Source: Rhodothermales bacterium (lineage in GTDB: Bacteria; Bacteroidota; Rhodothermia; Rhodothermales; JANQRZ01). Taken from it: a stretch of DNA of 64,000 bases. Under the pieces are notes generated by a model, which ran no database searches, had not been told where the DNA came from, and saw nothing but the letters and a program-made list of their open reading frames with translations. The stretch covers positions 338,000-401,999 of the forward strand of contig CBDCBW010000015.1 of the NCBI GenBank assembly GCA_965214485.1, in the 5' to 3' direction. The translations under genes and the position numbers were made by a program. Positions 24,759 through 57,714 of the stretch are shown piece after piece. The stretch's first letter is position 1. Each line of letters starts with the position of its first letter.

Positions 24759-24800
24759 CTGGGTCAGGACACCTGATGGGTCAGAGCATCTGCTCCCGCC

Positions 24801-29884: not shown

Positions 29885-29897
29885 ACGCTTCCGCCGC

Positions 29898-32012
<2,115 letters not shown>

Positions 32013-34662: not shown

Positions 34663-34906
34663 CCACCGGGCAGGGTGCGGATAAGCGTGCGCCGTGCGGC
34701 GGCAGAGGTCTCACCCGGACAGAAGGGCAAAAATAGCGCTCCGCCCCGCCCGCTGTCAACGACGCAGGGCGGCCCGAAGGAACGCGCGCGCGGCCTGCGT
34801 CGTGCCACCCGCCCGCTGAGGCCCGCACGGGGAGCTACTGCGCCTCTCGCCCGCGACGCCGGGCGCGCGCTTCGCCCCGTCCTCGCCCCGATTTCGCGAG
34901 GCCTTC

Positions 34907-42259: not shown

Positions 42260-42423
42260 TCAGCGCCTGAACCCATGCCGTCCGAGGTTTCCCCGCGTCG
42301 GGGTTGGGAGCGAATTCCTGGAACTCCCGCGCTCCGACGACGGCGTGAGCGCCGAAGGCGAGGAGGGTGAGGGTACCGGCGATGACGGCGAGGACATTCA
42401 TTCCTCAGTTAAAGGTTTCAAGG

Positions 42424-42553
42424 CCGTATACCAAAGGGCCGCTCACCCACGCGGGGAAAACAGGATGATGGTCGGACGAAGCTGCGGAAGCGGTGGAGTT
42501 CGGACGAGGCAAGACCGTGTAGCCCTTCGTCGGCGTGCAGCGGCGGGTTAGGC
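42424..42553 (-). repeat. attC-like site A1
   Basis: Left box degenerate (GTATACC). Inner arms GGGCCGCTCACCC / GTGCAGCGGCGG. Right box GTTAGGC. Confidence 0.65.
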
Positions 42554-42561
42554 AGCCGTGG

Positions 42562-43179: not shown

Positions 43180-43235
43180 GTCGGTAGGGCCTCGTTTGGT
43201 TATGATACGGTGGAGTTGGCTACGCTGTCACGGGG

Positions 43236-43366
43236 CCGCCTAACAGATTGCCACTCAGCCGCGAAGGGCTGACGGCACGGTGGTAGAACGGAGCGAAAGT
43301 AGCGCCGACGCTCAGGCGAGCCGAGAACGCTGACGCCCTTCGTCGGCTTGCGGCGGCGGGTTATGC
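43236..43366 (-). repeat. attC-like site A2
   Basis: Plus-strand boxes GCCTAAC ... GTTATGC. Arms TGCCACTCAGCC / TGCGGCGGCGG. Confidence 0.75.
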
Positions 43367-43684
43367 CGCAACGATATACGAGCGGCCCGGACGTACCGAC
43401 GGCAAGAGCGCGTTCAACTTCGGTAGTAGCGGTTCGAGGTCTGCCAGGTCTGAACTCGGCGCTCGGACGACGATTACCGCGAGGTCGAGTGCTGCCACGT
43501 TCTGTTGGTACTGCAAGTTGGAGTCGAGCGTCACGAAGACGTCGAACTCTGCCGCTGCGGCTCGAAGCAACTCCCCGTTCTTCTTCCCGCTCCATCCTCG
43601 GTACTTCACCGTCACGACGTCGTGGGCTGCGTCGAAGCCTCGCCGGAGCCGCCAGTCGAGGTTCTCATCCAGGAGCACCCGCAT
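43361..43684 (-). CDS. DUF5615-type PIN-like toxin; cassette 11
   Basis: 107 aa (MRVLLDENLDWRLRRGF...). Paralog of 44856..45176. Its TAA stop lies inside the GCATAAC box of A2. Confidence 0.7.
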   Translation of the reverse strand: MRVLLDENLDWRLRRGFDAAHDVVTVKYRGWSGKKNGELLRAAAAEFDVFVTLDSNLQYQQNVAALDLAVIVVRAPSSDLADLEPLLPKLNALLPSVRPGRSYIVAA

Positions 43685-43702
43685 CAGGCAGGAGCACTCG
43701 CA

Positions 43703-43915
43703 TCAGGTGGTCGCGAGGACGGCGTCCTTCGCCAACGCCAGAAATGCAACCGCCTGCTCACGGCTGACGCTGGGAAACCCTTCTAAGAAGTAATCGAGCG
43801 GTCGGCCTGCCGCGAGATAGTCGAGGAGGTTCTGAACGGGGACGCGCGTGCCTTGAAAGACAGGCGTGCCTCCCAAGATGTCGGGGTCGGAATGGTAAAC
43901 TTGGTGCCTTTCCAT
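43703..43915 (-). CDS. DUF433-type antitoxin; cassette 11
   Basis: 70 aa from ATG 43915 (MERHQVYHSDPDILGGTPVFQGTRVPVQNLLDYL). The ILGG.PVF.GTRVP motif is typical of DUF433. Confidence 0.75.
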   Translation of the reverse strand: MERHQVYHSDPDILGGTPVFQGTRVPVQNLLDYLAAGRPLDYFLEGFPSVSREQAVAFLALAKDAVLATT

Positions 43916-44002
43916 CGGGTCTACGTGGCTGGCGGGTCTACGTGGCTGTTCGGAGAATCGAACGCCTTCTGCCACCTTTCCGATCCAGCACCGGCGCAGT
44001 TG

Positions 44003-44122
44003 CGGCATAACAGGGGGCCGCTCAGCCGCACAGCGCGGCGATTGAACGAGACAAAGTAGGTGGCAAGGTTCGGACGAGGCAAGACGGCGGAGCGCCGTGT
44101 CGGCCTGCAGCGGCGGTTATAC
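44003..44122 (-). repeat. attC-like site A3
   Basis: Boxes GCATAAC ... GTTATAC. Arms GGCCGCTCAGCC / CTGCAGCGGCG. Confidence 0.75.
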
Positions 44123-44130
44123 AGCCGGGG

Positions 44131-44724
44131 CTACATGCCGTCCTGATCCAGCCGGTACGCGAACACCCCGTTCATCTCACAGATGAAGGCGACGTACCGC
44201 TCGTCCGGCGAGAGCGTCAGGCTGTGACAGTTCTCAAACCCGCTCGTCCAGAGCGTCTCCGGTTCCGCGCCGGTCCGAGTTATCACGAACGCGGTGCTCA
44301 TGCCCTCCTGGTGTAGCTCGACGGAGGTACCCCCTTTGGTACGCATGGAGCGAGGGGCAAAGTTCGCGGCCTCCTGCCAGGCAGTGGCTTCGGGTGCTTC
44401 CGCGACAGACTCGCCCGACTGGAGGGCACCGAGCGGAAGATCACCCCGCCATGTCGCCCCGACAAGGGCAAGAGAGTCGAGGCGAACCGAATACCAAATC
44501 CCGGCTACGTTCGCAGCGAGCCGTGAGCCGTCTGGCGACCAGACCGGGAACTCGTCCACAGCTTGGGAGGGGACAATCAGCGCGGTGCTCGCTCCGAGGC
44601 GGGTGAGTTCAGCATCGAGGGATTGAAGAGTGTAGGAGGTGTCAGGCGGTGCATCAGCCTCCTTCTCTTGCGCAAAGGATGGGCTGGCAGCCAAGAGCAG
44701 TAGAGGGAGAACGAGTCTGTACAT
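44131..44724 (-). CDS. Secreted protein with PD40-like motifs; cassette 10
   Basis: 197 aa from ATG 44724 (MYRLVLPLLLLAASPSFAQ signal peptide). Motifs WSPDGSRLAA and LSPDERYVAF. The longer track ORF start would lie inside attC A4. Confidence 0.6.
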   Translation of the reverse strand: MYRLVLPLLLLAASPSFAQEKEADAPPDTSYTLQSLDAELTRLGASTALIVPSQAVDEFPVWSPDGSRLAANVAGIWYSVRLDSLALVGATWRGDLPLGALQSGESVAEAPEATAWQEAANFAPRSMRTKGGTSVELHQEGMSTAFVITRTGAEPETLWTSGFENCHSLTLSPDERYVAFICEMNGVFAYRLDQDGM

Positions 44725-44730
44725 TGGGAG

Positions 44731-44861
44731 GCTGTATAGCAGAGGGCTGCTCATCCGCCTAGGGCAAGCAGCACGAGGGTGGAACGAGGCAGTGTAAGCG
44801 GCGCAGGTTGCACGAGGCAAGACCGTGCAGCCCTTCGTCCGCCTGCAGCGGCGGGTTATAA
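44731..44861 (-). repeat. attC-like site A4
   Basis: Left box degenerate (GTATAGC), right box GTTATAA. Arms GGGCTGCTCATCC / CTGCAGCGGCGG. Confidence 0.65.
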
Positions 44862-45176
44862 TGCCACGCGGATTACGCGCCCCGGAGCCGCCTCCTGCAA
44901 CGCTGCGTTGATCGACGCCACCAACGGGAGCAGGTCATCGATGTCGTTGCTCACGGCCGAGAGCACGATCAGACACAGCTCGATCCCCGTCAGGTTCTGC
45001 TGATACTCGATCCCCCGGTCTATCGTCAGCAGCACGTCGAACTCCAAGGCCGCCAGCCGGAGCAGTGGGCCGTTCTTGATGCCGCCCCACCCACGCTCGG
45101 GCACCGTCAGCGCCTCCGCCTCCAGCGAGCACTTCAGCTTGCGCGGCAGGTTCTCGTCGAGCAGGACCCGGATCAC
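44856..45176 (-). CDS. DUF5615-type PIN-like toxin; cassette 9
   Basis: 106 aa. GTG start overlaps the antitoxin stop (GTGA). Sequence IRVLLDENLPRKLK. Its TAA stop lies inside the TTATAAC box of A4. Confidence 0.7.
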   Translation of the reverse strand: MIRVLLDENLPRKLKCSLEAEALTVPERGWGGIKNGPLLRLAALEFDVLLTIDRGIEYQQNLTGIELCLIVLSAVSNDIDDLLPLVASINAALQEAAPGRVIRVAL

Positions 45177-45385
45177 GCCTCAGCCACCAACTCCTGCTCA
45201 GCCAACTCGAGCAAGGCTTCGGCCTGCTCCCGGCTGACCGTGGGGAAATCGTCACGGAAGTCCTCGATCCGCTTCCCCTTGCGGAGGTAGACGAGCAGCG
45301 TGTCAATAGGCACGCGGGTGCCGGTGAAGACCGGCGTGCCGCCGAGGATTTCGGGATCGGAGTGGTAAACGTCAGTGCGCTTCAT
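45173..45385 (-). CDS. DUF433-type antitoxin; cassette 9
   Basis: 70 aa (MKRTDVYHSDPEILGGTPVFTGTRVPIDTLLVYL). Confidence 0.75.
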   Translation of the reverse strand: MKRTDVYHSDPEILGGTPVFTGTRVPIDTLLVYLRKGKRIEDFRDDFPTVSREQAEALLELAEQELVAEA

Positions 45386-45465
45386 CGCTTCGGCTCATAT
45401 CGTTTCAGGTTGCTCGCCTGACTTCAAACGCCCCTGCTCCCGTTCGGATTCAGCGCGTCGGGAGT

Positions 45466-45598
45466 GGCCGTATAACAGATGGCCGCTCACCCGCGCAGGG
45501 CAAGCAGCACGATGGTCGGACGAAGCTACGGAAACGCAGACGTTCGGACGAGCCGAAAACGCTCGCGCCCTGCGTCGGCGTGCAGCGGCGGGTTATGT
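45466..45598 (-). repeat. attC-like site A5
   Basis: Boxes GTATAAC ... GTTATGT. Arms GGCCGCTCACCC / GTGCAGCGGCGG. The IS481-like element is inserted about 17 nt beyond its right box. Confidence 0.8.
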
Positions 45599-45680
45599 GC
45601 ACGGGCGGTACAGACCGGGCTGATGGTTTACACAATAGTCCAGGCACATGGTTTACACGGACACCCTTCCGTGAGTTGCC

Positions 45681-46878
45681 ATGCCCTTCCAGACTACCGA
45701 CCCGCCTATGGAGCGCGCCCGCCTCGTCGCCGCTCACCTCGACGGCCTCTACTCTGTCGCCGAACTCGCCGACCGCTTCTCGGTCTCCCGGCCCACCGTT
45801 TCTCGGTCTCCCGGCCCACCGTTTCTCGGTCTCCCGGCCCACCGTCTACAAGTGGATCGAGCGATACGCTGAGGGTGGCACCGAGGCGCTCCTCGACCGT
45901 AGCCGAGCCCGACATACCCAGCACGCTAAGACCGACCCGGAGGCGGAGCGCCTGCTCATTGAGGCCCGGCGGGCGCACCCCACCTGGGGCGCACGCAAGC
46001 TGCTGCCCTACCTCGCCCGGCGGCACGAGGGCGTCCGCTGGCCTGCGCCGTCTACGGCAGCGGCCATCCTCCAGCGCCACGGGCTGACGAAGACGCGCCG
46101 CAAGCGCCGGGTGCCGAAGCACCCCGGCTCCGCCCCGCTGGTGACGACGGCCCCCAACGAGGTCTGGACGGCCGACTTCAAAGGCCAGTTCAAGACCCGC
46201 GACGGGGTGTACTGCTACCCGCTGACGGTCTGCGACGCCCACTCGCGCTTTGTGCTCGGCTGCACCGGCCTGCCATCGGTCAAGCAGAAGGGCGCGAAGG
46301 ATCAGTTCGAGCGCCTGTTCCAGAAGTACGGCCTGCCCGAGGCGATCCGTAGCGACAACGGCGTACCGTTCGCCACGCAGGCGCTCTGCGGCCTGAGTCG
46401 GCTGAACGTGTGGGGGCTCAAGCTCGGAATCGGGCACGACCGGATCGCACCAGGGCAGCCTCAACAGAACGGACGCCACGAGCGGATGCACAAGACCCTG
46501 AAGGCCGAGACGGCACGACCACCCGAGCGTGAGATGGCACGGCAGCAGGTGCGCTTCGACGGCTGGCGCACGGAGTTCAACGACGAGCGCCCGCACGAGG
46601 CCCTCAGCTATGAGACTCCCGCTTCACTCTACGTGGCCTCGCCCCGCGCAATGCCCGACGTGCTCCCGAAGCCGGAGTACCCCGGCCACTTCGAGGTGCG
46701 CTGGCTCTCGAAGAGCGGCAACATCAAGTGGAAGCGGCAGCAGCTCTTCGTCAGTCAGGCGCTGGCGCACGAGTGGGTCGGGCTCGAGGAAGTCGCCGAC
46801 GGGGTGTGGAGCTTGTACTTCTACGACCGGCTGTTGGCGCGGCTTGACGAGCGCTCGGGGCTAAGGCTTCGGCCGTGA
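45681..46878 (+). pseudogene. IS481-family transposase (HTH + rve integrase core), frameshifted by a 23-bp tandem triplication
   Basis: MPFQTTDPPMERARLVAAHLDGLYSVAELADRFSVSRPTV (frame of 45681) continues as YKWIERYAEGGTEALLDRSR... only in the +1 frame after 45844. The core contains WTADF...D...RSDNGVPF...E. Confidence 0.8.
45776..45844 (+). repeat. Perfect 23-bp tandem repeat x3 (TTCTCGGTCTCCCGGCCCACCGT) inside the transposase gene
   Basis: Read directly at 45776-45798, 45799-45821 and 45822-45844. Two extra units add 46 bp, which shifts the frame by +1. Confidence 0.95.
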
Positions 46879-46935
46879 GGGGTGTAAACGATGTGGTCAG
46901 ACAAAACTGTAAAGGAACTGACCGGCTCCTACAGG

Positions 46936-47769
46936 TCAGACTTCGTACAGATCGTGGAGGAGTTGTATGGTGTCCCGTGCGAACTCTCGGGCCTCAGACT
47001 TCGATACAGTTCGGTTCCCGTGTACGATGCGGCTCAGGTCAGCGTAGAGATCGCTGATCGGCCCCCGGAATTTCTTGAAGTGATTGCTCCTGTCCAACAG
47101 CGCCCGGAGGTCGGCAGGTTGCATCTGATAATCCTCAGGAATGCGGAAACTCCGGTTCTGCTCTCGCGCTTTTCGCTCGTAGTACGACTTGGTGATGCCG
47201 TAATTCTGGTGCTCAGGGTCGAAGAAGCCTTCGAGTTGACACAGGTGGCGCAGCGCAATCTCAATCACCGTTCGGCAAAGGACGCAAACGGCGAGGTACT
47301 GCTCGAAGGCGTAGCACTGCCGCATCTCCTGCAAGAAGGAGCCGAACTCGGTGGGGGTGTCGTCAGCGCGAGCTACAAGCGCGCCCACTTCCAACATGCC
47401 GGAGACGTATTCGTAGTGGCTGTACCACGGGAAGAAGTGCTCCTCCGCAAGCTCGTCCAACTCGTCGAAGGTGTGCTCGTCATCGAAGAGGTCTGAGAGT
47501 GGAGTGTCCGAGACTACCTCTTCCAGAGGGAGCTTCTTGCCGAGCACGATCCTCTGGACGGTCGCTCGCACATCCCGCGACGCATCATCGGGCAGGAGCG
47601 CAGCCGGTGAATCGAGGAAGTGCTGTTTGATCGAGCGCTTGATCTGACCGTGCTCCTCGACCAGCGCACCGAGCGGCTTGAAGTCCTTCTTGTCGAACGC
47701 CAGAGACAGTGCGTCCGGGAACTCCTGCTCAATCTGCCGGAGGCGTTCGATCTGCTCAGCGAAGTCCAT
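46936..47769 (-). CDS. Hypothetical protein with a DUF4145/HEPN-like C-terminal region; cassette 8
   Basis: 277 aa. The helical C-terminus (CRTVIEIALRHLC ... LYADLSRIVHGNRTVSKSEAREF) is reminiscent of DUF4145/Abi-type HEPN. This is a recall-level assignment only. Confidence 0.5.
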   Translation of the reverse strand: MDFAEQIERLRQIEQEFPDALSLAFDKKDFKPLGALVEEHGQIKRSIKQHFLDSPAALLPDDASRDVRATVQRIVLGKKLPLEEVVSDTPLSDLFDDEHTFDELDELAEEHFFPWYSHYEYVSGMLEVGALVARADDTPTEFGSFLQEMRQCYAFEQYLAVCVLCRTVIEIALRHLCQLEGFFDPEHQNYGITKSYYERKAREQNRSFRIPEDYQMQPADLRALLDRSNHFKKFRGPISDLYADLSRIVHGNRTVSKSEAREFARDTIQLLHDLYEV

Positions 47770-47791
47770 CAGTGGGCACGGTGGGAAGGAA

Positions 47792-47914
47792 GCATAACAG
47801 GTTGCGCTTCAGCCGCGCCGGAACGCGACCGTGGAGTGGAAAGCTACGATGAGTGCTAGCACACCGACGGCAAAACCGCACAGCCCGGCGTCGGTCTGCA
47901 AGCGCGGGTTATAC
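47792..47914 (-). repeat. attC-like site A6 (divergent arms)
   Basis: Boxes GCATAAC ... GTTATAC. Arms GTTGCGCTTCAGCC / GGTCTGCAAGCGCGG still pair, so the structure is conserved rather than the sequence. Confidence 0.7.
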
Positions 47915-48472
47915 CGCCGGGCTTGGCAGTTTTTGTATAGCAAGACCTCGTCCTGATACCCAATCAACGTATTCCCCCCATCCCCCCACTTGAAATACAA
48001 CCTCCACTTGGTCCATTCTCGATAGGTAATTAAGCACGTTCCGATGTTCCGGCTTGTCAGCGAAGCGGATAGACATCCTCGTCACGGACCAAGGAATTCG
48101 AGAGGAATCCTGGTGGTAGATAGCAGATAGCTTCACCTCACCAGCAAAGGTGCTGATGTCATCAACAACCATCTTCGCGGCGGTAACAGGATTAGAAAGG
48201 TCGCAATTATCGCCTGTCAGCGGGTAATCATTCGCCCGAATTGAAGTCATACTGGAATGCCTCTCAGATATGTCGAGTAGTTCTTGCAGCAGTTCAGGAG
48301 CAGGTCGAAAATCATTGCCAGTGGAGATCGTCAAGGCAACCAACCGATCCTTCTCCCTTTGTTGAATGTCCTTCAGTCGTTTGGTTTCGGAGCGCGCCTT
48401 CCGAGTCGCTAACGCTTGCAGATAAAAGGCTAACGCTATACTGGCAACTAAAATAGTTAGGAAAAAGAGCAT
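47909..48472 (-). CDS. Membrane-anchored orphan protein; cassette 7
   Basis: 187 aa. N-terminal TM helix MLFFLTILVASIALAFYLQAL. Lower-GC sequence. Its TAA stop lies inside the GTATAAC box of A6. Confidence 0.6.
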   Translation of the reverse strand: MLFFLTILVASIALAFYLQALATRKARSETKRLKDIQQREKDRLVALTISTGNDFRPAPELLQELLDISERHSSMTSIRANDYPLTGDNCDLSNPVTAAKMVVDDISTFAGEVKLSAIYHQDSSRIPWSVTRMSIRFADKPEHRNVLNYLSRMDQVEVVFQVGGWGEYVDWVSGRGLAIQKLPSPAV

Positions 48473-48487
48473 AGATCAGGACGCGAG

Positions 48488-48619
48488 GCGGTATAACAGA
48501 CGGCCGCTCACCCACGCAGGGCAAGCAGCACAATGGTTGGACGGGGCAACGTAGACACCGATGCTCGGACGAGCCCAGAACGCTTGCGCCCTGCGTCGGC
48601 GTGCAGCGGCGGGTTATAC
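48488..48619 (-). repeat. attC-like site A7
   Basis: Boxes GTATAAC ... GTTATAC. Arms GGCCGCTCACCC / GTGCAGCGGCGG. A second stem is CGCAGGGCAAGC / GCTTGCGCCCTGCG. Confidence 0.8.
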
Positions 48620-48674
48620 AGAATCATTCTTGGTACCTCTGTTCAGGCTAAATAATATTTGATATTTAAGGCTT

Positions 48675-49727
48675 CTAAAATAGCGTAGTCTGCTCAACTG
48701 ACACTTCTGTTTCCGTTGCGCCGTCACCCGAAATAGCCGGGTCAAGCTCATCAAAGCGGAACCGGGAGCTTTCGAGGTACTCTTCCTCAAGCTCGAAGGC
48801 GAGGTAACGGCGGCCCATTTCCTGCGCCACCTCGCCGGTCGTGTTGCTCCCGGCGAAGGGATCAAGCACGAGATTACCTTCTTCAGTAGTAAGGCCGATG
48901 ATGAACTCGGGGAGCGCCTTCGGGAAGCGGGCAGGATGCCGCTTGGCTCCGGTCTCGCGGCACCGCCGCTGATAGCGGTCGTTGCTGGACGTGTTCGACG
49001 CCGCTACGACATTGACGGGGACGGGTTCACCGATCTCGTGCTCAAAGGCGTCATCCTCTAGGATGTTTGGCGGAATCGCGCCGCCGTTGTTCTTTCCGAA
49101 CTTGTCTGAGATGTCGTGTTCGCTCGGGCGGAGCTTCGGCGTGTAGCCGTTCTTCATCAGGTGCTTCTGCGCCTTGCTGTAAGGCTTCAGCACACTCCGG
49201 TTCGTCACTTTCCCGTCCTTCTCATCAACGACGGCAGAGGGGCGAAGCCACCAAACGGTGTTGACTGCATCCTTGACACGGATGCGGCGGACGGTCACCC
49301 ACTCGGCAGGCGTCGGCAGCTTGGCCGGATTGTACCAGTAGAGTTCTTGCGCGAGGAAGAAACCGAACTCCCCGCCTTCCTCGACTGGCTTGCACAGCCG
49401 AAGCAGAAACTCGTAATGGTAGAGGCTGCGATACGGTAGCCCTTTGATCCACGTACCGCCTAAGTCAATGACGAGCGAACCGTCGGGTTTAAGGATGCGC
49501 TTGAACTGCTCTGCAAAGGGTCTAAACCACTCGACGTACTTCTCAGACGTGACGTTGCCGTAGCCTTTCTGTCGGAGTAGCGCAAACGGCGGCGACGTGC
49601 AGATGAGGTCCACGGACTCATCGCCAAGCTGCTTCATCAGTTCCACGCTGTCGCCGAGGTAGGCCGCGCCAGCTTCCGTGGTGTAGTAAGGCTGGGCGTC
49701 GCCGAGGGTTGGGAGCGGCATGGGCAC
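48675..49727 (-). CDS. Beta-class DNA methyltransferase (N4-cytosine or N6-adenine); cassette 6
   Basis: 350 aa. Motif IV TSPPF lies near the N-terminus and motif I DPFAGSNTTG near the C-terminus. The first ATG is at 49721; the track start at 49727 is GTG. Confidence 0.85.
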   Translation of the reverse strand: MPMPLPTLGDAQPYYTTEAGAAYLGDSVELMKQLGDESVDLICTSPPFALLRQKGYGNVTSEKYVEWFRPFAEQFKRILKPDGSLVIDLGGTWIKGLPYRSLYHYEFLLRLCKPVEEGGEFGFFLAQELYWYNPAKLPTPAEWVTVRRIRVKDAVNTVWWLRPSAVVDEKDGKVTNRSVLKPYSKAQKHLMKNGYTPKLRPSEHDISDKFGKNNGGAIPPNILEDDAFEHEIGEPVPVNVVAASNTSSNDRYQRRCRETGAKRHPARFPKALPEFIIGLTTEEGNLVLDPFAGSNTTGEVAQEMGRRYLAFELEEEYLESSRFRFDELDPAISGDGATETEVSVEQTTLF

Positions 49728-49756
49728 CTCTTTAGATTGATTGCGCGATGGAAAGG

Positions 49757-49882
49757 CTTGACAACGTCAAGCGGGGAGCGCTACGTTAACGGCAATTTAT
49801 GCGCTCGCGCCAAAGGGTAGGGCATCTACCTTCGGGCCGAGCGCGCTGAACCATACTACGACAACGCCTTGACTAAGTCAAG
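49757..49882. promoter_or_regulatory. Divergent R-M control region with two copies of the palindrome CTTGAC-n3-GTCAAG
   Basis: CTTGACAACGTCAAG at 49757-49771 and CTTGACTAAGTCAAG at 49868-49882. The second copy overlaps the putative TTG start of the HTH gene. Confidence 0.6.
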
Positions 49883-50111
49883 CAGTTTTTCGCCAGAGGA
49901 CTTCAAGCCGGACGATTGGGTTTCGCAATCGGAGGCAGCGGACATCCGCGGCGTCTCTCGACAGGCGATCCACCAACTCGTGCAGAAGGGCCGGTTCCGC
50001 ACCTACGCTGTGGCCGGACGGACGCTCGTGCTACGGGAGGATGTGGTACAGTACGAACCGGACAAGGGAGGGCGTCCGCCCACCTCGGACGAGACCGAAC
50101 AAGGGGCATAG
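49869..50111 (+). CDS. Small HTH DNA-binding protein (excisionase/MerR-like HTH; candidate controller of the R-M unit); cassette 6
   Basis: 80 aa. WVSQSEAADIRGVSRQAIHQLVQKGRF reads as an HTH. The only in-frame start is TTG at 49869. Confidence 0.55.
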   Translation: MTKSSSFSPEDFKPDDWVSQSEAADIRGVSRQAIHQLVQKGRFRTYAVAGRTLVLREDVVQYEPDKGGRPPTSDETEQGA

Positions 50112-50112
50112 C

Positions 50113-51567
50113 GTGGCATCTGCAAAGAAGGAGAGCCAAATCCCCGTCGGCACGGGCTTCAGCCCCGATCTCGTGAGCCTGCCAGACTACGTTCGCGCCG
50201 CCGTTCGGCACAGCGGGGATTTGGACGCGCTGGAAGAAGCGCTCAACACACCGCCCGTCTGGATCGGCAAGAAGCTGAGGACGACGCGGCGCACCCGCCG
50301 CCACCCGATGGAAGCGGGGGCGCAGTACGGACTGCTCACGCCGGGGAGCTACGAAGCAACCGACCTCACGCGAAAGCTCGCCCGGCTGAGCGAGGACGAT
50401 TTGTACCAAGCGTTTGCGCGGCACATCGTTCTGAACGTCGGTGGTCTCCGTGTCGTGGAGGGAGCGCAGGAGATGCATCTTGACGGGCGGAAGGTCACCG
50501 GCGACTCGCTCGCGCAGTACCTCTCGGATCAGGGCTTCCGGGTCAGCGTCCACAACACCGCGATCAACACGATGCGGATGTGGCTGGCGAAAGCAAAGCT
50601 GTTCCCCGAAAGCGGGCGTGGGGCAGGAGCATGGCGACCGGACCCGGCGGTAAAGGAGCAACTTGTGGGGATGGACGACGATGCTATCGCGGCGCTGGCA
50701 GCATTGACGCCCGAACAGGTCGCGTTTGCTAAAACGCTCGCTCGCCTCGACCCGGACGACTGGACACCGGCGGCAGAGGTACGGGACCTTGCCGAAGCCG
50801 CTGAGGGCGTGCGGATTGGTCGCGGCTCGTTGCCGAACGAAGTGCTCCGTCCATTGGAGGCAGCGGGGCTGATCGAGTACCGAACGGGCGGCACCAGCAG
50901 CGGGAAGACTTCGGAGTTGAGAACGACGGAGGCGTTTCGGGCCGAGGTGCTGGAGCCGTTTCTGGAGCGGACGCTGAAAGACCTCGACCCGGCACTGACG
51001 GCCTACTACCGCACCCGGCCCGCCGACATTTACACTGCTCTCGGCTCGAAGGACAAGCACGAAAAGGGGCAGGCGCTTGAAGCGTTCGCCGTGATGGTGA
51101 TGCGTCTGCTCGGACTCCGGTTCGTCGGCTGGCGGCGGCGGGCCGAGGAAACCGGATACAGCGAAGTGGACGTGCTGATGGCCGGGCTGTTTGGGGCGGT
51201 GCCTACGACGTGGCAGGTGCAGTGCAAAAACACGCCGTCGGGACAGGTCCGCTTGGAGGATGTAGCGAAGGAAGTCGGGCTGATCCCGCTTATGCGGGCA
51301 ACGCACATCCTCGTGCTGGCAAACGCGCCGTTCACCCGCGATGCCCGGCGCTACGCCGACGCGATCATGCAGAACTCGTCGGTTACGGTTTTTCTGCTGG
51401 ACCGGACGGACTTCGAAGCAATTCGGGAGAGTCCCGCTAACCTGGGTCGCATTCTTCAGGCACAGGCCGAGCGCATCCGCGATCTCAAGATGGCAACGCC
51501 GGTATGGCGAGAAGGCGATGCACGCGGGGGACCGGATCAACCCTCGCTCGGTCTACCGCTGGGCTGA
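50113..51567 (+). CDS. Restriction endonuclease-like protein with a C-terminal Mrr-type PD-(D/E)xK domain; cassette 6
   Basis: Likely GTG start at 50113, just after the HTH gene stop. The C-terminus (GYSEVDVLMAG...WQVQCKNTPSGQV) fits the Mrr_cat D...(E/Q)xK pattern. Its stop abuts attC A8. Confidence 0.65.
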   Translation: MASAKKESQIPVGTGFSPDLVSLPDYVRAAVRHSGDLDALEEALNTPPVWIGKKLRTTRRTRRHPMEAGAQYGLLTPGSYEATDLTRKLARLSEDDLYQAFARHIVLNVGGLRVVEGAQEMHLDGRKVTGDSLAQYLSDQGFRVSVHNTAINTMRMWLAKAKLFPESGRGAGAWRPDPAVKEQLVGMDDDAIAALAALTPEQVAFAKTLARLDPDDWTPAAEVRDLAEAAEGVRIGRGSLPNEVLRPLEAAGLIEYRTGGTSSGKTSELRTTEAFRAEVLEPFLERTLKDLDPALTAYYRTRPADIYTALGSKDKHEKGQALEAFAVMVMRLLGLRFVGWRRRAEETGYSEVDVLMAGLFGAVPTTWQVQCKNTPSGQVRLEDVAKEVGLIPLMRATHILVLANAPFTRDARRYADAIMQNSSVTVFLLDRTDFEAIRESPANLGRILQAQAERIRDLKMATPVWREGDARGGPDQPSLGLPLG

Positions 51568-51568
51568 T

Positions 51569-51695
51569 TCTGTATAACAGAGGGCCGCTCACCCGCAGAG
51601 GGCCGCGCGGCGGTGGGACGAGGCAACGTAGACGCCGAGGTTCGGACGAGGCAAGACCGTGCAGCCCTTCGTCGGCGTGCAGCGGCGGGTTAGGC
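51569..51695 (-). repeat. attC-like site A8
   Basis: Boxes GTATAAC ... GTTAGGC. Arms GGGCCGCTCACCC / GTGCAGCGGCGG. Confidence 0.8.
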
Positions 51696-51713
51696 AGAAT
51701 GCGGGCAGTGGAG

Positions 51714-53066
51714 TTAGTTCAGAGTTGCCCTCAGCGAAGGGAAGAAGGCTGAAACCGGATTGTCTACAGAGTCCGGATCGTCAAGAGCTTTCCGGACCTG
51801 GCTGGCGATCTCAGACTTGTACACCTCAAGCCTTGGCACCAGTGCAAAGATGCTCGAGGTATCAATCTGAATCGTCCTCACTTGATTGAGGTCGAACGGA
51901 ATGTGGTCTGCTGCCCGCATGATCTGGACAGTCGGCAGACGACAGGCGTGCCTCAAGGCCAACTCGTAGAATACGTTGGGGTTATGATAAGACAGATCTG
52001 CGATGACTAACTTTGACTTGAGGATGTACTCGATGATCTGGGCCGTGATGATACCAGGCTCCGCGATATAGTCCGCACGCACCAGCTTCAGTCCAAACGG
52101 CTCCAAGGCGGGCTCGATAATAGAGCCCATGAAGAGATCTGAGTGCTGACGCTGCTCCGATTCCTCATCACCTATCGGCGTGATGTAGAAACAAATATGA
52201 TCGAAGTCAGCGCTTGAACTGGCGGGTTTGGCGCGACCTGTCGCAACTACTCCGTCAGGGGCCGGGCGTCCACCCCGGCTTGGGGCACGAACGGCGCGCT
52301 CCAGTCCTTCAAGGGCGTGGTCGAACGTCAAGAGGCGTTCAGCACCTGAAAGAGTTCTGAGAAGGCCCAGATACCGAGCGTTGACGATGAATATGTCAAC
52401 GCACTCGTTCGATCTCTGCTCTGACATACCGGTCTCACGTAACGCGTCGCGCAAAAGAGAACTCGACGGCATTCGTGAGCCTGCAAATGTCTCATAAAGC
52501 AACTTGAACGGCTCGACACCCATTATCCCAAGCTCAATCCGAGCCTTAGTCCGCTCGTGCTCGGACACGTCGTCGCTGGTCGCCTTGTCACCTTCGGGAG
52601 TCAACTGAAGATGCTCCGCTTTATGACTCCCCTTCACAAGACCGTACTTGCTCGCGTTCGTGAGAAGCTGCCGACTCTGACTACTCTCAGGAGACTTGCC
52701 GAACTCATCGAACAAGGTGAGACGACGGACCTGGTTGCTTCCTGCAGTCTCTTGGATGAACTGCGCAAAGCTCACGACCTCCTCAAAGGAGGCATTAGGG
52801 TAGGGTAGCGGCGTTCGCTGTCTGGGCTTCTTTGCGGCAGGCTTCTTCTTATCAGCAGGCTTCTTCTTCCGTGTCGTCTTCTTCCCAGCATTGGCCTTTG
52901 GCTTCCGGCTGGCGGGTTTCTTAGCCGTAGCCTTTTGAGCCGACTCCGCCTTCTTCGCTGGCTCCGCTGCCTCAGTTGACTGTTCGCCCTCCGACATGGG
53001 CTCGGCGTCAGAGGACTTCGACTCTGATTCCCCGAAGAGGTTGGTGCCATTCGCTCCTACTTCCAT
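51714..53066 (-). CDS. Three-part protein: Lys/Pro/Ala-rich basic tail, two winged-helix-like repeats, and a C-terminal nucleoside 2-deoxyribosyltransferase/TIR-like domain; cassette 5
   Basis: 450 aa. Basic tail KKPASRKPKANAGKKTTRKKKPADKKKPAAKKPRQR. C-terminus CFYITPIGDEESEQ...VRADYI...LVIADLSYHNPNVFYELALRHA matches the NDT-like pattern (recall-level). Confidence 0.6.
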   Translation of the reverse strand: MEVGANGTNLFGESESKSSDAEPMSEGEQSTEAAEPAKKAESAQKATAKKPASRKPKANAGKKTTRKKKPADKKKPAAKKPRQRTPLPYPNASFEEVVSFAQFIQETAGSNQVRRLTLFDEFGKSPESSQSRQLLTNASKYGLVKGSHKAEHLQLTPEGDKATSDDVSEHERTKARIELGIMGVEPFKLLYETFAGSRMPSSSLLRDALRETGMSEQRSNECVDIFIVNARYLGLLRTLSGAERLLTFDHALEGLERAVRAPSRGGRPAPDGVVATGRAKPASSSADFDHICFYITPIGDEESEQRQHSDLFMGSIIEPALEPFGLKLVRADYIAEPGIITAQIIEYILKSKLVIADLSYHNPNVFYELALRHACRLPTVQIMRAADHIPFDLNQVRTIQIDTSSIFALVPRLEVYKSEIASQVRKALDDPDSVDNPVSAFFPSLRATLN

Positions 53067-53131
53067 TGGACTAACCGGTCTGTTTCAAGAGCCTGAACAA
53101 GTTCGCGTAGAAGATACTCGGTCGGGGCATT

Positions 53132-53261
53132 CTGCCTAACAGAGGGCCGCTCACCCGCAGAGGGCCGCGACCAGGATGGACTCGAAGATATGACGGCGTG
53201 GGCGCTCGACCGCAGGCAAGACGACCGAGGCCCTATGTCGGCGTGCAGCGGCGGGTTAGCA
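53132..53261 (-). repeat. attC-like site A9
   Basis: Boxes GCCTAAC ... GTTAGCA. Arms GGGCCGCTCACCC / GTGCAGCGGCGG. Confidence 0.8.
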
Positions 53262-53628
53262 CGCAGGCGTTGAGGGCACACCGTTGGAACTGCGAAGCTT
53301 ACCCCCCTCCTACCTACGACGCGGGTCCGCCCGCCTCGGTGAGACTCTGGACACGGCTGCGTAGCGGCGGTGACCGCACTCGCTCTGGATTGGGTGCCCG
53401 GCTGTGGGGGCCGAGCAGACGGAGGAACTGCGACGCCGAGCTCGCACGGCTGGCAGAACCTCCCGCGACGCTGGTAGGCACCCACGAGCACACGCTCACC
53501 CGAGGCCGCCTCTGCCGGGCCGTGGAGGCGAGCACGGGCCACTCGGTCCACAAGAACACCGAGGCTGGCAAGGGCGCGAGTGGTTCCGCCTTGCAAGGAA
53601 ACGGACTCCGCCCCACGACGAGGGCCTG

Positions 53629-53759
53629 CGTGCTAACAGAGGGCCGCTCACCCGCGCAGGGCAAACAGCACAATGGTCGAACGAAGCTACGGAAGCGCAG
53701 GCGTTCGGACGAGCCGAGAACGCTCACGCCCTGCGTCGGCGTGCAGCGGCGGGTTAGCC
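53629..53759 (-). repeat. attC-like site A10
   Basis: Boxes TGCTAAC ... GTTAGCC. Arms GGGCCGCTCACCC / GTGCAGCGGCGG. Confidence 0.8.
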
Positions 53760-54569
53760 GGACCCGTGGGGCACGGCAGTTGGGGACAGCATCTCTTGAA
53801 CCTCCTCAATCGTGTACGGTGGAGACTTCCGGTGGATTACGGCGTGGCAGTTCGGACAGACTGGACGGAGGTCGTCTACCGGATCTACCTCGTACCGCTC
53901 GCCCAACTCTGACACCGGGCGGAGGTGATGGACGTGGATGAAGCCCTCGGTGGCGGCACCGTAGGCACGGGCGAAGTCGAACCCGCAGACGATGCACGCA
54001 ACGCCGTAGTAGGCAAGGCACCGCCGCCGTGCCTCCGGGTTGCGCTCGTACACGTTGAGGCTGACGGCGCGCGGGGTGCCCTCGTACAGCGGGCGCGGCT
54101 CAGCGCTCCGGTTAGAATCCGGCGGGGAGGCCGAGCCGATGACGGAACCCCACTCCCGTTCCAGCGCTTCCGCAACGTGAGGCGGGATCGAGGTACCCGA
54201 CGCCTGGGTGTTCCAGTAGACGTCAGCGAACTCGGGCGCGTCCAGCCGCTCGCGCGGGAGGATCGGATCAGTCTCGGGATCTTGCAGCGCGTCGAACTCC
54301 ACTTCGACGAACCAGCCTGGCGTGTCGCGCTCCGGGTCCCAATGATCGTCTTGGTACGACGGCGTTGTGACGGAGCCGCTGGCGATGATCCCGCGTGGTT
54401 CGAGACCCTGGCGGAGCAAGAAAACGCGGTCGCCCTGCTCGATCCGTTTCGTGTTTCCGCAACTCCAACGACGGACCAATCGCCCGCGCTCGGCAACCTC
54501 GTTTGCGTCGGCGGCGAGGCCGTCCCACTTCCACCGCTTCGGGTTCCACGTCAGGAGATACGTCGCCAT
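53754..54569 (-). CDS. PUA-like (EVE/ASCH-type) domain fused to an HNH nuclease (candidate modification-dependent restriction enzyme); cassette 3
   Basis: 271 aa. N-terminus YLLTWNPKRWKW...GDRVFLLRQG..GIIASG. C-terminal HNH CIVCGFDF...FIHVHHLRPV...CPNCHAVIH. Its TAA stop lies inside the GGCTAAC box of A10. Confidence 0.75.
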   Translation of the reverse strand: MATYLLTWNPKRWKWDGLAADANEVAERGRLVRRWSCGNTKRIEQGDRVFLLRQGLEPRGIIASGSVTTPSYQDDHWDPERDTPGWFVEVEFDALQDPETDPILPRERLDAPEFADVYWNTQASGTSIPPHVAEALEREWGSVIGSASPPDSNRSAEPRPLYEGTPRAVSLNVYERNPEARRRCLAYYGVACIVCGFDFARAYGAATEGFIHVHHLRPVSELGERYEVDPVDDLRPVCPNCHAVIHRKSPPYTIEEVQEMLSPTAVPHGSG

Positions 54570-54590
54570 AGCACAGCGATTCGGAGGGTA

Positions 54591-54720
54591 CGGCTAACAG
54601 TTGACCGCTCAGCCGCGTGGGGCAAACAGCACGGAAGTTGAACGAAGCGAAGGTAGCGCCGACGCCAGAACGAGCCGAGAACGCTCACGCCTCACGTCGG
54701 CCTGCAGCGGTGGGTTATGT
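54591..54720 (-). repeat. attC-like site A11
   Basis: Boxes GGCTAAC ... GTTATGT. Arms GACCGCTCAGCC / CTGCAGCGGTGG. Confidence 0.75.
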
Positions 54721-54745
54721 GGCGTACAGTAGATGTCCACTCATT

Positions 54746-55441
54746 CTAATGTCCGAACCGATACGAACCTAGGTCGATCAGGTCTAACTCCTCGATTCGA
54801 ATCGCCATCGCCTCGTAGGAGACGCCGAAGAGTTCAGCAATTGGCTTCACGGGGTTCCCGGCGAACATTCCAGCCTTTGCCAAGCGAAGAGAGAGTGGCC
54901 GCATATCGGGACTTGTAGCTAGCAGAGGTCCCAAATCTTTAATCCCGAGGGAGAATGCCGAGTCGTTGGATACGATAAACCGATCAGATCCGAAGATCGC
55001 TCGGAATGCCTCTCTCATCACGGACTCGGGCATCAAGAAGTATGCGGCGAACTTGTCGGCTTCATACTCCACTTGTGGGCGGTGGCCCCGAATCAGCGAG
55101 CCATCAAGGCCACGATCTCTGAACTGTTTGTCTGCTTTGTGGAGAATCGCATGACCAAGCTCATGCGCCGCCGTGAAAGCCTGGACCACTGGTACGAACT
55201 GCTCTGATACGGCAGCGTATCGCTTCGGTTTGTCGATGAACCCAGCCACCTCGGTTACGTCGCCACCATCGATGATCTGTCCCAAGAATGGAGCGCGCTC
55301 AAAAGTGTAGCCGAAAGCATGAAATGCGGAGGGCGGATCAAGAACATCGATGACGCCTCTGTCGGTACCGTCTGTCCATATGTCTGACCTATTTCTCCAA
55401 AGGTCGTTCTGGACGTTTTTAGCGATGGAGTGAACGACCAC
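54746..55441 (-). CDS. ImmA/IrrE-family zinc metallopeptidase; cassette 2
   Basis: 231 aa. HEXXH motif AAHELGHAILH followed by EYEADKFAAYFLMP. The GTG start is embedded in the IS200-like end hairpin, so the true N-terminus is uncertain. Confidence 0.75.
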   Translation of the reverse strand: MVVHSIAKNVQNDLWRNRSDIWTDGTDRGVIDVLDPPSAFHAFGYTFERAPFLGQIIDGGDVTEVAGFIDKPKRYAAVSEQFVPVVQAFTAAHELGHAILHKADKQFRDRGLDGSLIRGHRPQVEYEADKFAAYFLMPESVMREAFRAIFGSDRFIVSNDSAFSLGIKDLGPLLATSPDMRPLSLRLAKAGMFAGNPVKPIAELFGVSYEAMAIRIEELDLIDLGSYRFGH

Positions 55442-56020
55442 CCCCAGAGGGGGTGGCTTCTGTATTCCTCACGGCGACCCCTGAAAGGGGATCGCGCGCT
55501 CACGAGAACAGATCGTAGTTGGCCTGCTGCCGCTCCTGTTTCTTCTCCTCCTGCTCCTGATACTGAACGTAGCGCCGGATCAGATCCTCGTTCAAACCCA
55601 CCGTGTTCACAAAGTACCCTCGCGACCAGAAATGATTGCCCCAATACGGCTTCTTCCGCAGACGGGGGTAGCTCTTGAACAGCTTGATCGCCAGCTTCCC
55701 CTTCAGAAAGCCCATGAACTGCGAGACCGCCAGCTTCGGTGGGATCGAGCAGAGCAGGTGGATGTGGTCGGGCTGCACGCTTAGCTCCATCACCTCGACC
55801 TGCTTCCACGCACACAGCACCCGGATGTCGTGCTCGACGGCCTCTTTGATAGCCCCTTCGAGCACACGGTAGCGGTACTTCGGCGTCCAGACGATGTGGT
55901 AGTTGCACTGGTAGACCGTGTGCGTGAGCTTTCGATACTTCGCGTTGCGCTCTGCCATGCTGCCAGTTTACGGCATAGCCGAACACACATCACCACCGTC
56001 AAAGACGGTGGGTTGCTACG
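55440..56020 (-). mobile_element. IS200/IS605-family element (tnpA only; ends approximate) inside cassette 2
   Basis: The Y1 transposase gene is flanked by subterminal hairpins: CCACCGTCAAAGACGGTGG at 55994-56012, and GACCCCTGAAAGGGGATC and CCACCCCCAGAGGGGGTGG at 55437-55492. Confidence 0.7.
55500..55958 (-). CDS. tnpA: IS200/IS605-family Y1 transposase TnpA
   Basis: 152 aa. YHIVWTPKYRYRVL, the HUH motif (DHIHLL) and the catalytic-Tyr region WSRGYFVNTVG. Confidence 0.9.
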   Translation of the reverse strand: MAERNAKYRKLTHTVYQCNYHIVWTPKYRYRVLEGAIKEAVEHDIRVLCAWKQVEVMELSVQPDHIHLLCSIPPKLAVSQFMGFLKGKLAIKLFKSYPRLRKKPYWGNHFWSRGYFVNTVGLNEDLIRRYVQYQEQEEKKQERQQANYDLFS

Positions 56021-56769
56021 CTAAACTCAATCTCCGAGTCAGTATACTTCGAGTCGATTAGACTCTTGTCTCGAATGAGGTTGATGTCCAATCCGAAGCC
56101 GTCATTCGAAGCTTGTGCGCCAGACCTCAACTCCAAGACTCTGGTTTGCAGTTCAGTGCCGATGAGGCGAGCGCGTTCCTCCAACTTTTCCGCGCGAGCT
56201 AGCAACTCCACGATCTCGCTCTCCCCGTTGAAGCTCTTGAGGTTGAGGTACACGATCGAAATAGCGCCGGTCGCTCCAGACAGGGCGGAGTCGATAGCCA
56301 CCTCCGAGTCGCCTCGGGCAGCCTTAAACCCAATGTCGAATACGGTGACGGCGTGTTCGGCGAGCGCCAAACAGCTCTCAGCTATTTCAAGAGGAATTTC
56401 ACTGGCAACATGCAACTCATCCAAAGCCTGCTTCCCATACCTCCATCTCTGGGCGGGATCGGTCTCGGCGTTTCTTGCAAGTCGCGCCTTGATGACCTTG
56501 TCAAACTGAACTGAGTCCTCGTCGAACGCTTCCCACAGCTTGGGCTCGATGTCATTGGTGATGGACTCCTCGATACTGTTAAGCTCGGCTACGGCTTCTT
56601 CATGTTCATGGCCGCCACGTCGCTTCGAAAGATCGATGACGGTTTTCGTCAGAGCGCACGAGATCAGGCCGAGCAGCGCGGCTGCGCTACCCGAACCGGG
56701 CTTGTGCCCGCCAGCGCCGAACTTCCTCAGAAGCTCGTCTAGGGGAAGCTTTGCTAGATCGACTGCCAT
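55999..56769 (-). CDS. Cyclodeaminase/cyclohydrolase (FTCD C-terminal) family protein; cassette 2. Its C-terminus may be altered by the IS200 insertion.
   Basis: 256 aa. N-terminus LPLDELLRKFGAGGHKPGSGSAAALLGLISCALTKTVIDLS matches the FTCD_C pattern (PGGGSAAAL). The last 7 codons run into the IS end. Confidence 0.6.
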   Translation of the reverse strand: MAVDLAKLPLDELLRKFGAGGHKPGSGSAAALLGLISCALTKTVIDLSKRRGGHEHEEAVAELNSIEESITNDIEPKLWEAFDEDSVQFDKVIKARLARNAETDPAQRWRYGKQALDELHVASEIPLEIAESCLALAEHAVTVFDIGFKAARGDSEVAIDSALSGATGAISIVYLNLKSFNGESEIVELLARAEKLEERARLIGTELQTRVLELRSGAQASNDGFGLDINLIRDKSLIDSKYTDSEIEFSVATHRL

Positions 56770-56837
56770 GCCTCTCTGATCTGTGAACCTCGGGAGCTAA
56801 CGCACGCATCCGTAGCAGGTTGCCTTGTGCTCCCGCT

Positions 56838-56970
56838 AGCCACATAACAGACGGCCGCTCAACCGCGAAGGGCAAACGGCATGATGGTGAATCAGAGCGC
56901 AGGATACGCCGACGGTCGGACAACGCGAAAACGCTGACGCCCTTCGTCGGCTTGCAGCGGCGGGTTATGT
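56838..56970 (-). repeat. attC-like site A12
   Basis: Boxes ACATAAC ... GTTATGT. Arms GGCCGCTCAACC / TTGCAGCGGCGG. Confidence 0.8.
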
Positions 56971-57540
56971 GCACGGCTTGTAGCGCGCGGTGATTACGAT
57001 CTCCTGATCGAAGCGAAAACGACCGATCCCTCGGCTCCGCATCCTCATCCGCATCTCGGAGGTCAAGGGAATACCGTTTACTTGCTCGAACGTGATCTCG
57101 GACTCCACCGGCTCCATCAGGAAGCCCGCTAGTCCCGACAGCTCCGGCGAATGCACGATGACACTCTTCAACTCGGCTGGGTCCTTCTGAAACGTGAAGT
57201 CGGCCCCTGGCACCTCAGCCTCAGCCTCCGAGGGTTTCAGGCGCACCGCGCGGACCCGTAGCTCGTTCGACTGGTGGCTAGGAAGCTCGTGGCGCTTGAA
57301 CTCGTCGCCGCTCAACATGGGGAGGAGGTCTTCTTCCTCCGCGTTGGCTTCGGGATCGTCCAGCCGCTGCTCTCCTTTCTCGACCGAGGACGCAGGACCG
57401 AAAGCGCCGTGCTTGATCTGCTTGGATTCGCTGACGGCACATACGCCCCGGACGGCTTCCTGACGACGCTCGAACTGAGCGACGACTTCGGCGATGATCT
57501 GGCGGGCGCCGCCGCTCAGCAGGGTGTCAGTTTGGCTCAT
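56965..57540 (-). CDS. Orphan acidic protein; cassette 1 (junction-proximal)
   Basis: 191 aa from ATG 57540 (MSQTDTLLSGG), 10 nt after the terminal GTTATGTGCAC box. Its TAA stop lies inside the ACATAAC box of A12. Confidence 0.6.
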   Translation of the reverse strand: MSQTDTLLSGGARQIIAEVVAQFERRQEAVRGVCAVSESKQIKHGAFGPASSVEKGEQRLDDPEANAEEEDLLPMLSGDEFKRHELPSHQSNELRVRAVRLKPSEAEAEVPGADFTFQKDPAELKSVIVHSPELSGLAGFLMEPVESEITFEQVNGIPLTSEMRMRMRSRGIGRFRFDQEIVITARYKPCT

Positions 57541-57546
57541 AGGTGA

Positions 57547-57557
57547 GTGCACATAAC
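57547..57557 (-). other. Terminal cassette junction (half-site GTGCACATAAC; minus strand GTTATGTGCAC)
   Basis: Perfect 11-bp reverse complement of the right box of A12 (GTTATGTGCAC at 56964). No attC arms follow it, so this is the candidate attI-side junction of the first cassette. Confidence 0.6.
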
Positions 57558-57714
57558 CAGTGATTGAGCGGAAGCGCGCGGCATAGCGTGTGTCGGCGAA
57601 AGCCGAACCGTTCGGCATAGCATAACGCGATCTGCAAAAAGACGCAAGACTACTGCCTTTCCTCCGTGCTATGCCGACTCAGGCCCGCGCTATGCCGAAA
57701 CAAGGTCGCCCTCG

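Follow-up and report, generated by a model that had tools for sequence, protein, structure and literature searches.

What does a gene that lies between two integron recombination sites encode, and could its product act as a restriction enzyme? The question is raised by a 64,000-nt stretch of the Rhodothermales bacterium assembly GCA_965214485.1 (contig CBDCBW010000015.1, positions 338,000 to 401,999), referred to as the window herein. In this window a sequence-only reading had described a reader domain fused to an HNH nuclease and packaged as a small mobile cassette. Based on the analyses below, we consider it likely that this gene, referred to as the EVE-HNH gene, encodes a solitary, nucleoside triphosphate-independent, modification-dependent (type IV) EVE-HNH endonuclease carried in one promoterless integron cassette. 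The gene and its predicted parts are as follows, with the evidence for each in parentheses.

53754..54569, minus strand: the EVE-HNH gene (open reading frame list, conserved start, ratio of nonsynonymous to synonymous substitution rates, dN/dS).
54174..54560, minus strand: EVE (PUA-superfamily) modified-base reader domain, residues 4-132 (Pfam, AlphaFold 2 (AF2) model, Foldseek, likeness to EVE-McrB).
54045..54131, minus strand: predicted flexible inter-domain linker, residues 147-175 (predicted local distance difference test score (pLDDT) <50; variable length and sequence in a 38-member alignment).
53829..53996, minus strand: HNH (beta-beta-alpha-Me) nuclease domain with predicted Cys4 zinc site, residues 192-247 (Pfam, profile match to 6ghc, conservation).

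The open reading frame (ORF) had been placed at 53754..54569 with its strand unstated. We found that the ORF exists, that it lies on the minus strand, and that the encoded protein contains every motif quoted for it (YLLTWNPKRWKW, WSCGNTKRIEQGDRVFLLRQG, CIVCGF, HVHHLRP, and CPNCHAVIH). As listed, it runs 54569..53754 from an ATG at 54569 to a TAA at 53756..53754, and its 816 nt encode 271 amino acids. The start codon is backed by an invariant M1 and a conserved N terminus, MATYLLTWNP, in an alignment of 38 homologues; all statements on conservation below refer to this alignment.

The N-terminal domain had been called PUA-like, and a Pfam search had been suggested to place it. That search returned EVE PF01878, and not ASCH, over residues 4-132 with 26.8 bits against a curated cut-off of 23, which makes the assignment more specific than the one proposed. 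When family members were scanned singly with Pfam, EVE was found in 28 of 38 and HNH in all 38. Our AF2 model of the protein, built from the 38-member alignment, has a mean pLDDT of 85 and consists of two confident domains separated by a disordered linker at residues 147-175; pLDDT is 86-98 over residues 1-140, and the structured EVE domain extends to approximately residue 145. The top Foldseek matches to this model in the PDB were EVE domains (2ar1, 2eve, 2g2x, 2gbs, THYN1 5j3e, and 1zce; expect values (E) of 5e-6 to 5e-4), and the full-length EVE-HNH enzyme VcaM4I (6yex) aligned to it over 288 columns with an E of 7e-6. Invariant or near-invariant positions of the EVE half comprise W8, W13, W15, W35-S36, G38, D47, F50, P58, G60, H76-W77, W119, Q122, and S124-G125. 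Picked by conservation only, W8, W15, W35, W77, W119, and Q122 are candidate residues of a base pocket.

The C-terminal half was described correctly as an HNH nuclease. Pfam HNH PF01844 matched residues 192-247 with 27.6 bits against a cut-off of 21.4, and the domain is intact, with its candidate catalytic and zinc residues kept across the family. The key HNH positions (C192, C195, H214-H215, D233, C238, N240, C241, H242, and H246) are invariant or at least 90% conserved, with H214, H215, N240, H242, H246, and the four cysteines the same in all 38 sequences, and the invariant or near-invariant set of this half reads C192, C195, H212, H214-H215, D233, C238-P-N-C241-H242, and H246. Judged by its motifs, a His-His pair and a CxxC...CxxCH zinc site (Cys4), the domain is of the McrA-like subtype. 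When a profile of the 38 sequences was run against PDB sequences, the HNH half matched EcoKMcrA (6ghc) with an E of 3.7e-6, the closest solved structure by sequence. Only this half matched in the PDB sequence searches, with ScoMcrA and colicin DNases following at insignificant scores, and no part of residues 1-150 matched EcoKMcrA/ScoMcrA-type proteins. Foldseek also matched EcoKMcrA through the HNH half of the model, and PADLOC gave a weak match via the same half to its type IV methyl-directed restriction endonuclease model (E 1.4e-4). An NCBIfam scan of the protein yielded nothing significant, the sole match being to a phosphorothioate-restriction model at an insignificant score.

The protein belongs to a large family. 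At least 6,595 relatives at E <= 1e-3 were found among 8,000 candidates scored from a collection of 5.8 billion proteins. The 120 matches listed are mostly 260-275 amino acids long, 45-82% identical, and aligned nearly end to end, and many of them carry the JGI name '5-methylcytosine-specific restriction enzyme A' (McrA). Relatives in 587 stretches from GTDB (one genome per species) come from Chloroflexota, Bacteroidota, Planctomycetota, Acidobacteriota, Verrucomicrobiota, Pseudomonadota, and others, the closest being 78% identical and from a Rhodothermales metagenome-assembled genome. Comparison of the window gene with four homologues gave dN/dS values of 0.13-0.18 (Nei-Gojobori). The EVE-HNH gene is under purifying selection.

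The same reader is also found on a second kind of effector. In a tblastn search of plasmids, the N-terminal 150-170 residues matched at 38-41% identity inside proteins labelled 'AAA family ATPase', two of which, on Sinorhizobium pK101b and Fuscovulum pRsa, were looked at closely. The Sinorhizobium ATPase contains Pfam EVE and AAA_5. The Fuscovulum ATPase contains AAA_5, and EVE does not pass E 1e-3 in it, yet the tblastn match to the N-terminal residues of the window protein falls inside the protein. On both plasmids, an overlapping gene downstream of the ATPase matches Pfam McrBC (E 1e-57 to 1e-73). By BLASTP, the window protein and the Sinorhizobium ATPase are 38% identical over residues 3-171 (E 3e-30), and the motifs LLxWNPxRWxWD, RWxC, GDRVFL, HW, and WNxQxSG are common to the two EVE domains. 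By these domain matches both loci are McrB/McrC-type operons, the Sinorhizobium one demonstrably EVE-McrB. Of the computational evidence presented, this joining of one reader module to two type IV effectors argues most strongly that the module recognises modified DNA. The pairing of an EVE reader with different type IV restriction effectors agrees with the survey in the Bell et al. 2020 preprint, and EVE-HNH is already an experimental type IV architecture (PMC6765204, PMC7897488). The type IV reading first offered for this fusion is supported on both counts.

An EVE subtype that sits on McrB beside McrC, a DNA restriction system, also argues against a role outside defence, be it as a selfish or addiction-type HNH nuclease or as an EVE reader of modified RNA such as tRNA that was captured by chance in a cassette. 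The McrA restriction type of the HNH domain points the same way, as do the absence from the 961-nt cassette of any immunity or antitoxin gene and the spread of the family, which, unlike a homing element, is widespread as a stand-alone chromosomal gene in many phyla. Although EVE domains elsewhere have been proposed to bind modified RNA bases (Bell et al. preprint), homing endonucleases and toxins contain HNH domains too (compare the weak colicin DNase matches), and integron arrays, that of the window included, carry toxin-antitoxin cassettes, we regard a non-defence role as highly improbable.

Taken as a type IV enzyme, the protein may work as follows. Its EVE domain would bind DNA, and a conserved aromatic pocket in it would receive a flipped modified base, which by analogy with VcaM4I is most likely a cytosine substituted at position 5, such as 5-methylcytosine (5mC) or 5-hydroxymethylcytosine (5hmC). 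A flexible linker of ∼30 residues would tether the McrA-type HNH domain, with its predicted Cys4 structural zinc and His-His metal/general-base pair, and this domain would cut nearby DNA with Mg2+ or Mn2+, probably as a dimer. A methyltransferase partner would be absent because host DNA would be without the targeted modification. The cassette could be stored silently, and IntI, where present, could excise it or shift it to a promoter-proximal place. We infer each of these steps, from base flipping and the modification read to cleavage, phage restriction, and present-day mobility.

Structure comparison bears on the choice of base as well. YTH domains, which read N6-methyladenosine (m6A), matched the model from about E 1e-3 as the next-best structural matches behind the EVE structures, and the EVE domain is without detectable sequence similarity to that of VcaM4I. 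The same architecture and defence role could accordingly be paired with another specificity: the domain might read N6-methyladenine (6mA), N4-methylcytosine (4mC), 5-hydroxymethyluracil, or a hypermodified base, or the enzyme might mainly nick DNA instead of cutting both strands. Several invariant tryptophans could make an aromatic cage, and 6mA stimulates nicking by ScoA3V, another PUA-HNH enzyme (PMC6765204). However, EVE structures score ∼100 times better than YTH and Pfam assigns EVE, and the array around the gene encodes an N6/N4 methyltransferase, beside which a 6mA/4mC-dependent nuclease would risk host DNA, depending on sequence context. We find this alternative unlikely, and a 5-substituted cytosine is probably the target modification.

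Is the gene truly an integron cassette? We searched for attC sites by repeat finding, by motif search, and with a covariance model made from 11 aligned copies, which led to the following features.

53637..54597, minus strand: complete EVE-HNH cassette, 961 nt, from the TT of the upstream R' to the G of its own R' (R' boxes; 961-nt repeat spacing).
53631..53759, minus strand: own attC of the EVE-HNH cassette, with R'' GGCTAAC at 53759..53753 and R' GTTAGCA at 53637..53631 (covariance model 147 bits, E 2.5e-40; hairpin; 11-site alignment).
54592..54720, minus strand: attC of the upstream neighbour, whose R' GTTAGCC at 54598..54592 is the 5' boundary of the EVE-HNH cassette (140.7 bits, E 1.6e-38).
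42418..56977, minus strand: cassette array with 12 attC sites, within the window a cluster of attC sites lacking integron-integrases, or CALIN (covariance model, repeats, family matches).

The 12 attC sites are ∼129 nt long, lie at 42.4-57.0 kb, and are all on the minus strand, with E of 1e-15 to 1e-42 under the covariance model in the window. Each reads, on the minus strand, RYYYAAC, a spacer, an imperfect inverted repeat, and a GTTRRRY-like box. Folded as single-stranded DNA, the cassette's own attC pairs at its R box, stays open over the spacer (5 nt on one arm, 2 nt on the other), and has a long stem at its L box. Three bases bulge from the R''-L'' arm on the coding strand. Canonical attC sites have extra bases on the R''-L'' arm, and the bulges thus fit the minus strand as the 'top' strand, as gene orientation also indicates. 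One or two positions in the R' box of this site do not follow the strict RRRY consensus.

The EVE-HNH gene is bounded by attC sites and no other ORF is found in the 961 nt, which bears out the single-gene cassette of the sequence-only reading. Its stop codon, said to fall inside the attC box, is indeed the TAA within R'' GGCTAAC on the minus strand, and the ORFs at 53754..54569 and 56965..57618 both have stop codons inside R''. The cassette size of ∼830 bp did not hold, since that figure covers the ORF and a few bases. From one G/TT junction to the next (54597..53637) the cassette measures 961 nt, of which the leader takes up 28 nt, the ORF 816 nt, and the rest of the attC 117 nt. As an integron gene cassette the unit shows attC sites and a co-oriented array, and intI, attI, and the cassette promoter Pc are not present in the window.

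An IS200-type Y1 transposase in the array raised REP/RAYT elements (repetitive extragenic palindromes and their associated tyrosine transposases) as a candidate for the 129-nt repeats. We rejected this because the repeats have R''/R' boxes, bound single co-oriented ORFs, lie in a low-G+C island, and belong to the same family as a site beside an IntI gene. G+C is 54-67% in the array versus ∼70% in the flanks and genome, and all array ORFs that match a protein family are on the minus strand.

The exact 21-nt attC arm pattern of the window was found in 54 metagenome loci, where the covariance model scores 85 sites, often in arrays of 5-9. On one of these contigs, L122, an attC of the window family at 343-486 (minus) lies 575 nt from a divergent IntI gene at 1061-1732 (plus), which is 45% identical to IntI1 residues 10-233 (E 3e-51). 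The window attC family is a genuine integron family, and the L122 type of integrase probably services its sites. By the L122 layout, an integrase would be expected past the high-coordinate end of the window array, and none was found there; this promoter-proximal side runs into a 217-amino-acid ORF and a BrkB-family gene. No EVE-HNH homologue was found in the 54 metagenome loci.

Whether this copy is in use is a separate matter. A tblastn search with IntI1 found no integrase in the window, neither attI nor a Pc promoter was found in the 64 kb, an IS5-family transposase sits at one array end and an IS200-type one inside, and the EVE-HNH cassette comes fourth among the inter-attC intervals when these are counted from the promoter-proximal, high-coordinate side. 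The gene could then be a stored copy within the remains of a decayed integron, silent and immobile in its present genome. Since the ORF is intact and gives a strong signal of purifying selection, the attC keeps its R boxes and hairpin, and an integrase could sit elsewhere in the genome, whose contig here is about 509 kb long, we view such a silent copy as possible but doubtful. It concerns the expression state of the gene and is compatible with a type IV endonuclease in a cassette.

Relatives of the gene show how it occurs elsewhere. The window attC covariance model had no match in the best 80 of the 587 GTDB loci, nor in six contigs that carry the closest homologues. Four of the 80 loci were flagged by a generic scanner for AAC...GTT hairpins, and only L025 among them looks plausible. 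In the window this scanner recovered 4 of the 12 true sites and gave several false positives, and sensitivity for foreign attC types is low; since it misses most of the true sites, the negative on cassette-borne relatives is soft. Most family members are apparently not cassette-borne, as far as these scans of their flanks indicate. Three relatives, L001, L081, and L083, are 78-82% identical to the window protein, and a ∼22-nt 5' leader is common to all of them and the window. DNA identity to the Rhodothermales locus L001 (4975-5810) is ∼85%; it begins ∼22 nt upstream of the ATG (CCCTCCGAATC) and ends at the stop codon, where L001 reads GGCTGA and the window reads GGCTAAC, the start of the R'' box. 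The likeness of L081 (315-1149) to the window likewise ends at the stop codon. L001 and L081 have the same upstream neighbour gene and no attC, and L083 (105-1024), 82% identical, has GTTAGC where the window cassette boundary sits. This implies that cassette and non-cassette copies of one lineage coexist, and comparing the window with its non-cassette orthologues may bear on how cassettes arise or decay. We think it quite unlikely that the abundant EVE subtype of McrA-type HNH and McrB fusions reads a modification other than 5mC/5hmC and, with it, that the window and its non-cassette orthologues in related Rhodothermales-like genomes may capture the change from chromosomal gene to cassette.

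Other cassettes of the array encode defence-type proteins as well. Two cassettes from the EVE-HNH gene, one ∼3-kb inter-attC interval (48619-51570) holds an N6/N4 DNA methyltransferase (48675..49727, minus; Pfam 2.4e-39, PADLOC MTase_II 5e-108) and, upstream of it, a 545-amino-acid ORF without a family match (49903..51540, minus). Together the two genes may form a restriction-modification cassette whose nuclease is of an unclassified type. The cassette at 51714..53066 (minus) encodes a 450-amino-acid protein with a lysine/alanine-rich N terminus and no Pfam match, whose C terminus (residues 302-403) matches the PADLOC TIR effector model with an E of 3.3e-9. The interval 54720-56842 contains ORFs 54746..55441, 55500..55958, and 55999..56769 on the minus strand, for an M78 IrrE/CapP-like (CapP/RmrA-like) peptidase, an IS200-type Y1 transposase, and an FTCD_C (cyclodeaminase-like) protein; it could be an insertion sequence (IS) in a cassette or a multi-gene cassette. 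Toxin-antitoxin-like cassettes on the minus strand comprise DUF433 (43703..44008) with DUF5615/PIN-like (43361..43684) and a second DUF5615 (44856..45176), and another cassette encodes a flavodoxin-like protein.

Some features of the array and the rest of the window stand apart from these genes. In the ∼370-nt interval 53261-53631, between the attC sites at 53132-53261 and 53631-53759, the scanned ORFs have no family match, and the interval may be an empty or non-coding cassette. An IS4/IS5-family DDE transposase (41469..42251, plus strand) abuts the distal array end. Around it are repeats of 81-90% identity (12070-12191/40894-41015 and 41046-41097/46802-46853, the latter copy inside the array), which suggests more IS copies or fragments. 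At 8-88 of the window lies a tandem 9-nt repeat, CCATTCCCC, in ∼8 copies. Long direct repeats of 100-300 nt and 81-94% identity, spaced ∼1, 4.7, and 10 kb, occupy 18650-30130, upstream of a tRNA at 34602-34672, and indicate a repeated gene family or duplicated segments. An Rfam scan of the window returned only a tRNA.

How does the protein compare with characterised restriction enzymes? The EVE-HNH enzymes TspA15I, VcaM4I, and CmeDI, in a group whose members are 46-50% identical to TspA15I, prefer 5hmC (and 5mC) DNA and restrict the 5hmC phage T4gt, not lambda (Lutz et al. 2019, PMC6765204). The EVE domain of VcaM4I flips 5mC/5hmC into a pocket of P24, W82, and Y130, and its HNH dimer is auto-inhibited by a linker helix (Pastor et al. 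2021, PMC7897488). The same paper gives the active site as Ser-His224, N241, and D250/D254, and zinc and cysteines go unmentioned in it. With these enzymes (PDB 6YEX, 6YJB) the window protein has in common the order of N-terminal EVE, linker, and C-terminal HNH and a solitary gene without a methyltransferase. Its length of 271 amino acids is also near the ∼300 of VcaM4I, to which the whole model aligns by Foldseek.

Several observations weigh against a type IV endonuclease in an integron cassette. At E <= 1, 6YEX was never retrieved from PDB sequences, whether by phmmer with the protein, in a search with its N-terminal 145 residues, or by hmmsearch with the 38-sequence profile, and the Foldseek alignment to VcaM4I shows only 12-13% identity. 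With no match by sequence and 13% structural identity, the specificity of VcaM4I is not transferable with confidence. The HNH subtypes differ, H214-H215 and a Cys4 zinc site in the window protein versus Ser-His ... Asp in VcaM4I. Four other EVE-HNH proteins were inconclusive in vitro (PMC6765204), our literature search found no characterised member of the EVE plus McrA-type HNH subfamily, and the window is without the integrase, attI, and Pc mentioned above. By class, the protein has the N-terminal EVE, the C-terminal HNH with intact catalytic residues, and the lack of a cognate methyltransferase that define the EVE-HNH architecture, and it falls outside the TspA15I/VcaM4I/CmeDI sequence group both by sequence similarity and by HNH active site. 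As compared here, it has the architecture of VcaM4I, but its EVE domain is a distant one and its HNH domain is of another subtype.

The nuclease half resembles EcoKMcrA (6GHC) in the motifs CxxC...HH...CPNCH and the helix ahead of them. EcoKMcrA, the SRA-HNH enzymes ScoA3IV/TagI, and ScoMcrA likewise join an N-terminal reader to a C-terminal HNH domain, but the reader of the window protein is EVE and not the EcoKMcrA N-terminal domain, SRA, or a sulphur-binding domain. EVE-McrB/McrC systems, which are GTP-dependent, have the same EVE subtype as the window protein; they cut with an AAA+ translocase and the PD-(D/E)XK nuclease of McrC, whereas the effector in the window is a single-chain HNH nuclease.

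Type IV enzymes of the EVE-HNH kind and integron cassettes with defence genes have both been published before, and neither the architecture nor the cassette context alters current understanding. With this locus, the defence genes stored in integrons gain a further candidate, a compact putative type IV restriction enzyme encoded by one gene in a high-G+C environmental bacterium. A biochemical test could define the specificity of thousands of proteins often labelled 'McrA' and possibly give a useful modification-dependent enzyme. Published defence cassettes come from Vibrio and clinical mobile integrons (Darracq, Littner et al., bioRxiv 10.1101/2024.07.02.601686; 'Mobile Integrons Encode Phage Defense Systems', bioRxiv 10.1101/2024.07.02.601719), whereas the present candidate is from a high-G+C environmental bacterium with no integrase in the window, and we did not find EVE-HNH named among the cassettes of that work. 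As in those integrons, a compact single-gene defence candidate is bounded by attC and lies among other defence-type and toxin-antitoxin cassettes, and the array agrees with published accounts of integrons as reservoirs of compact defence genes.

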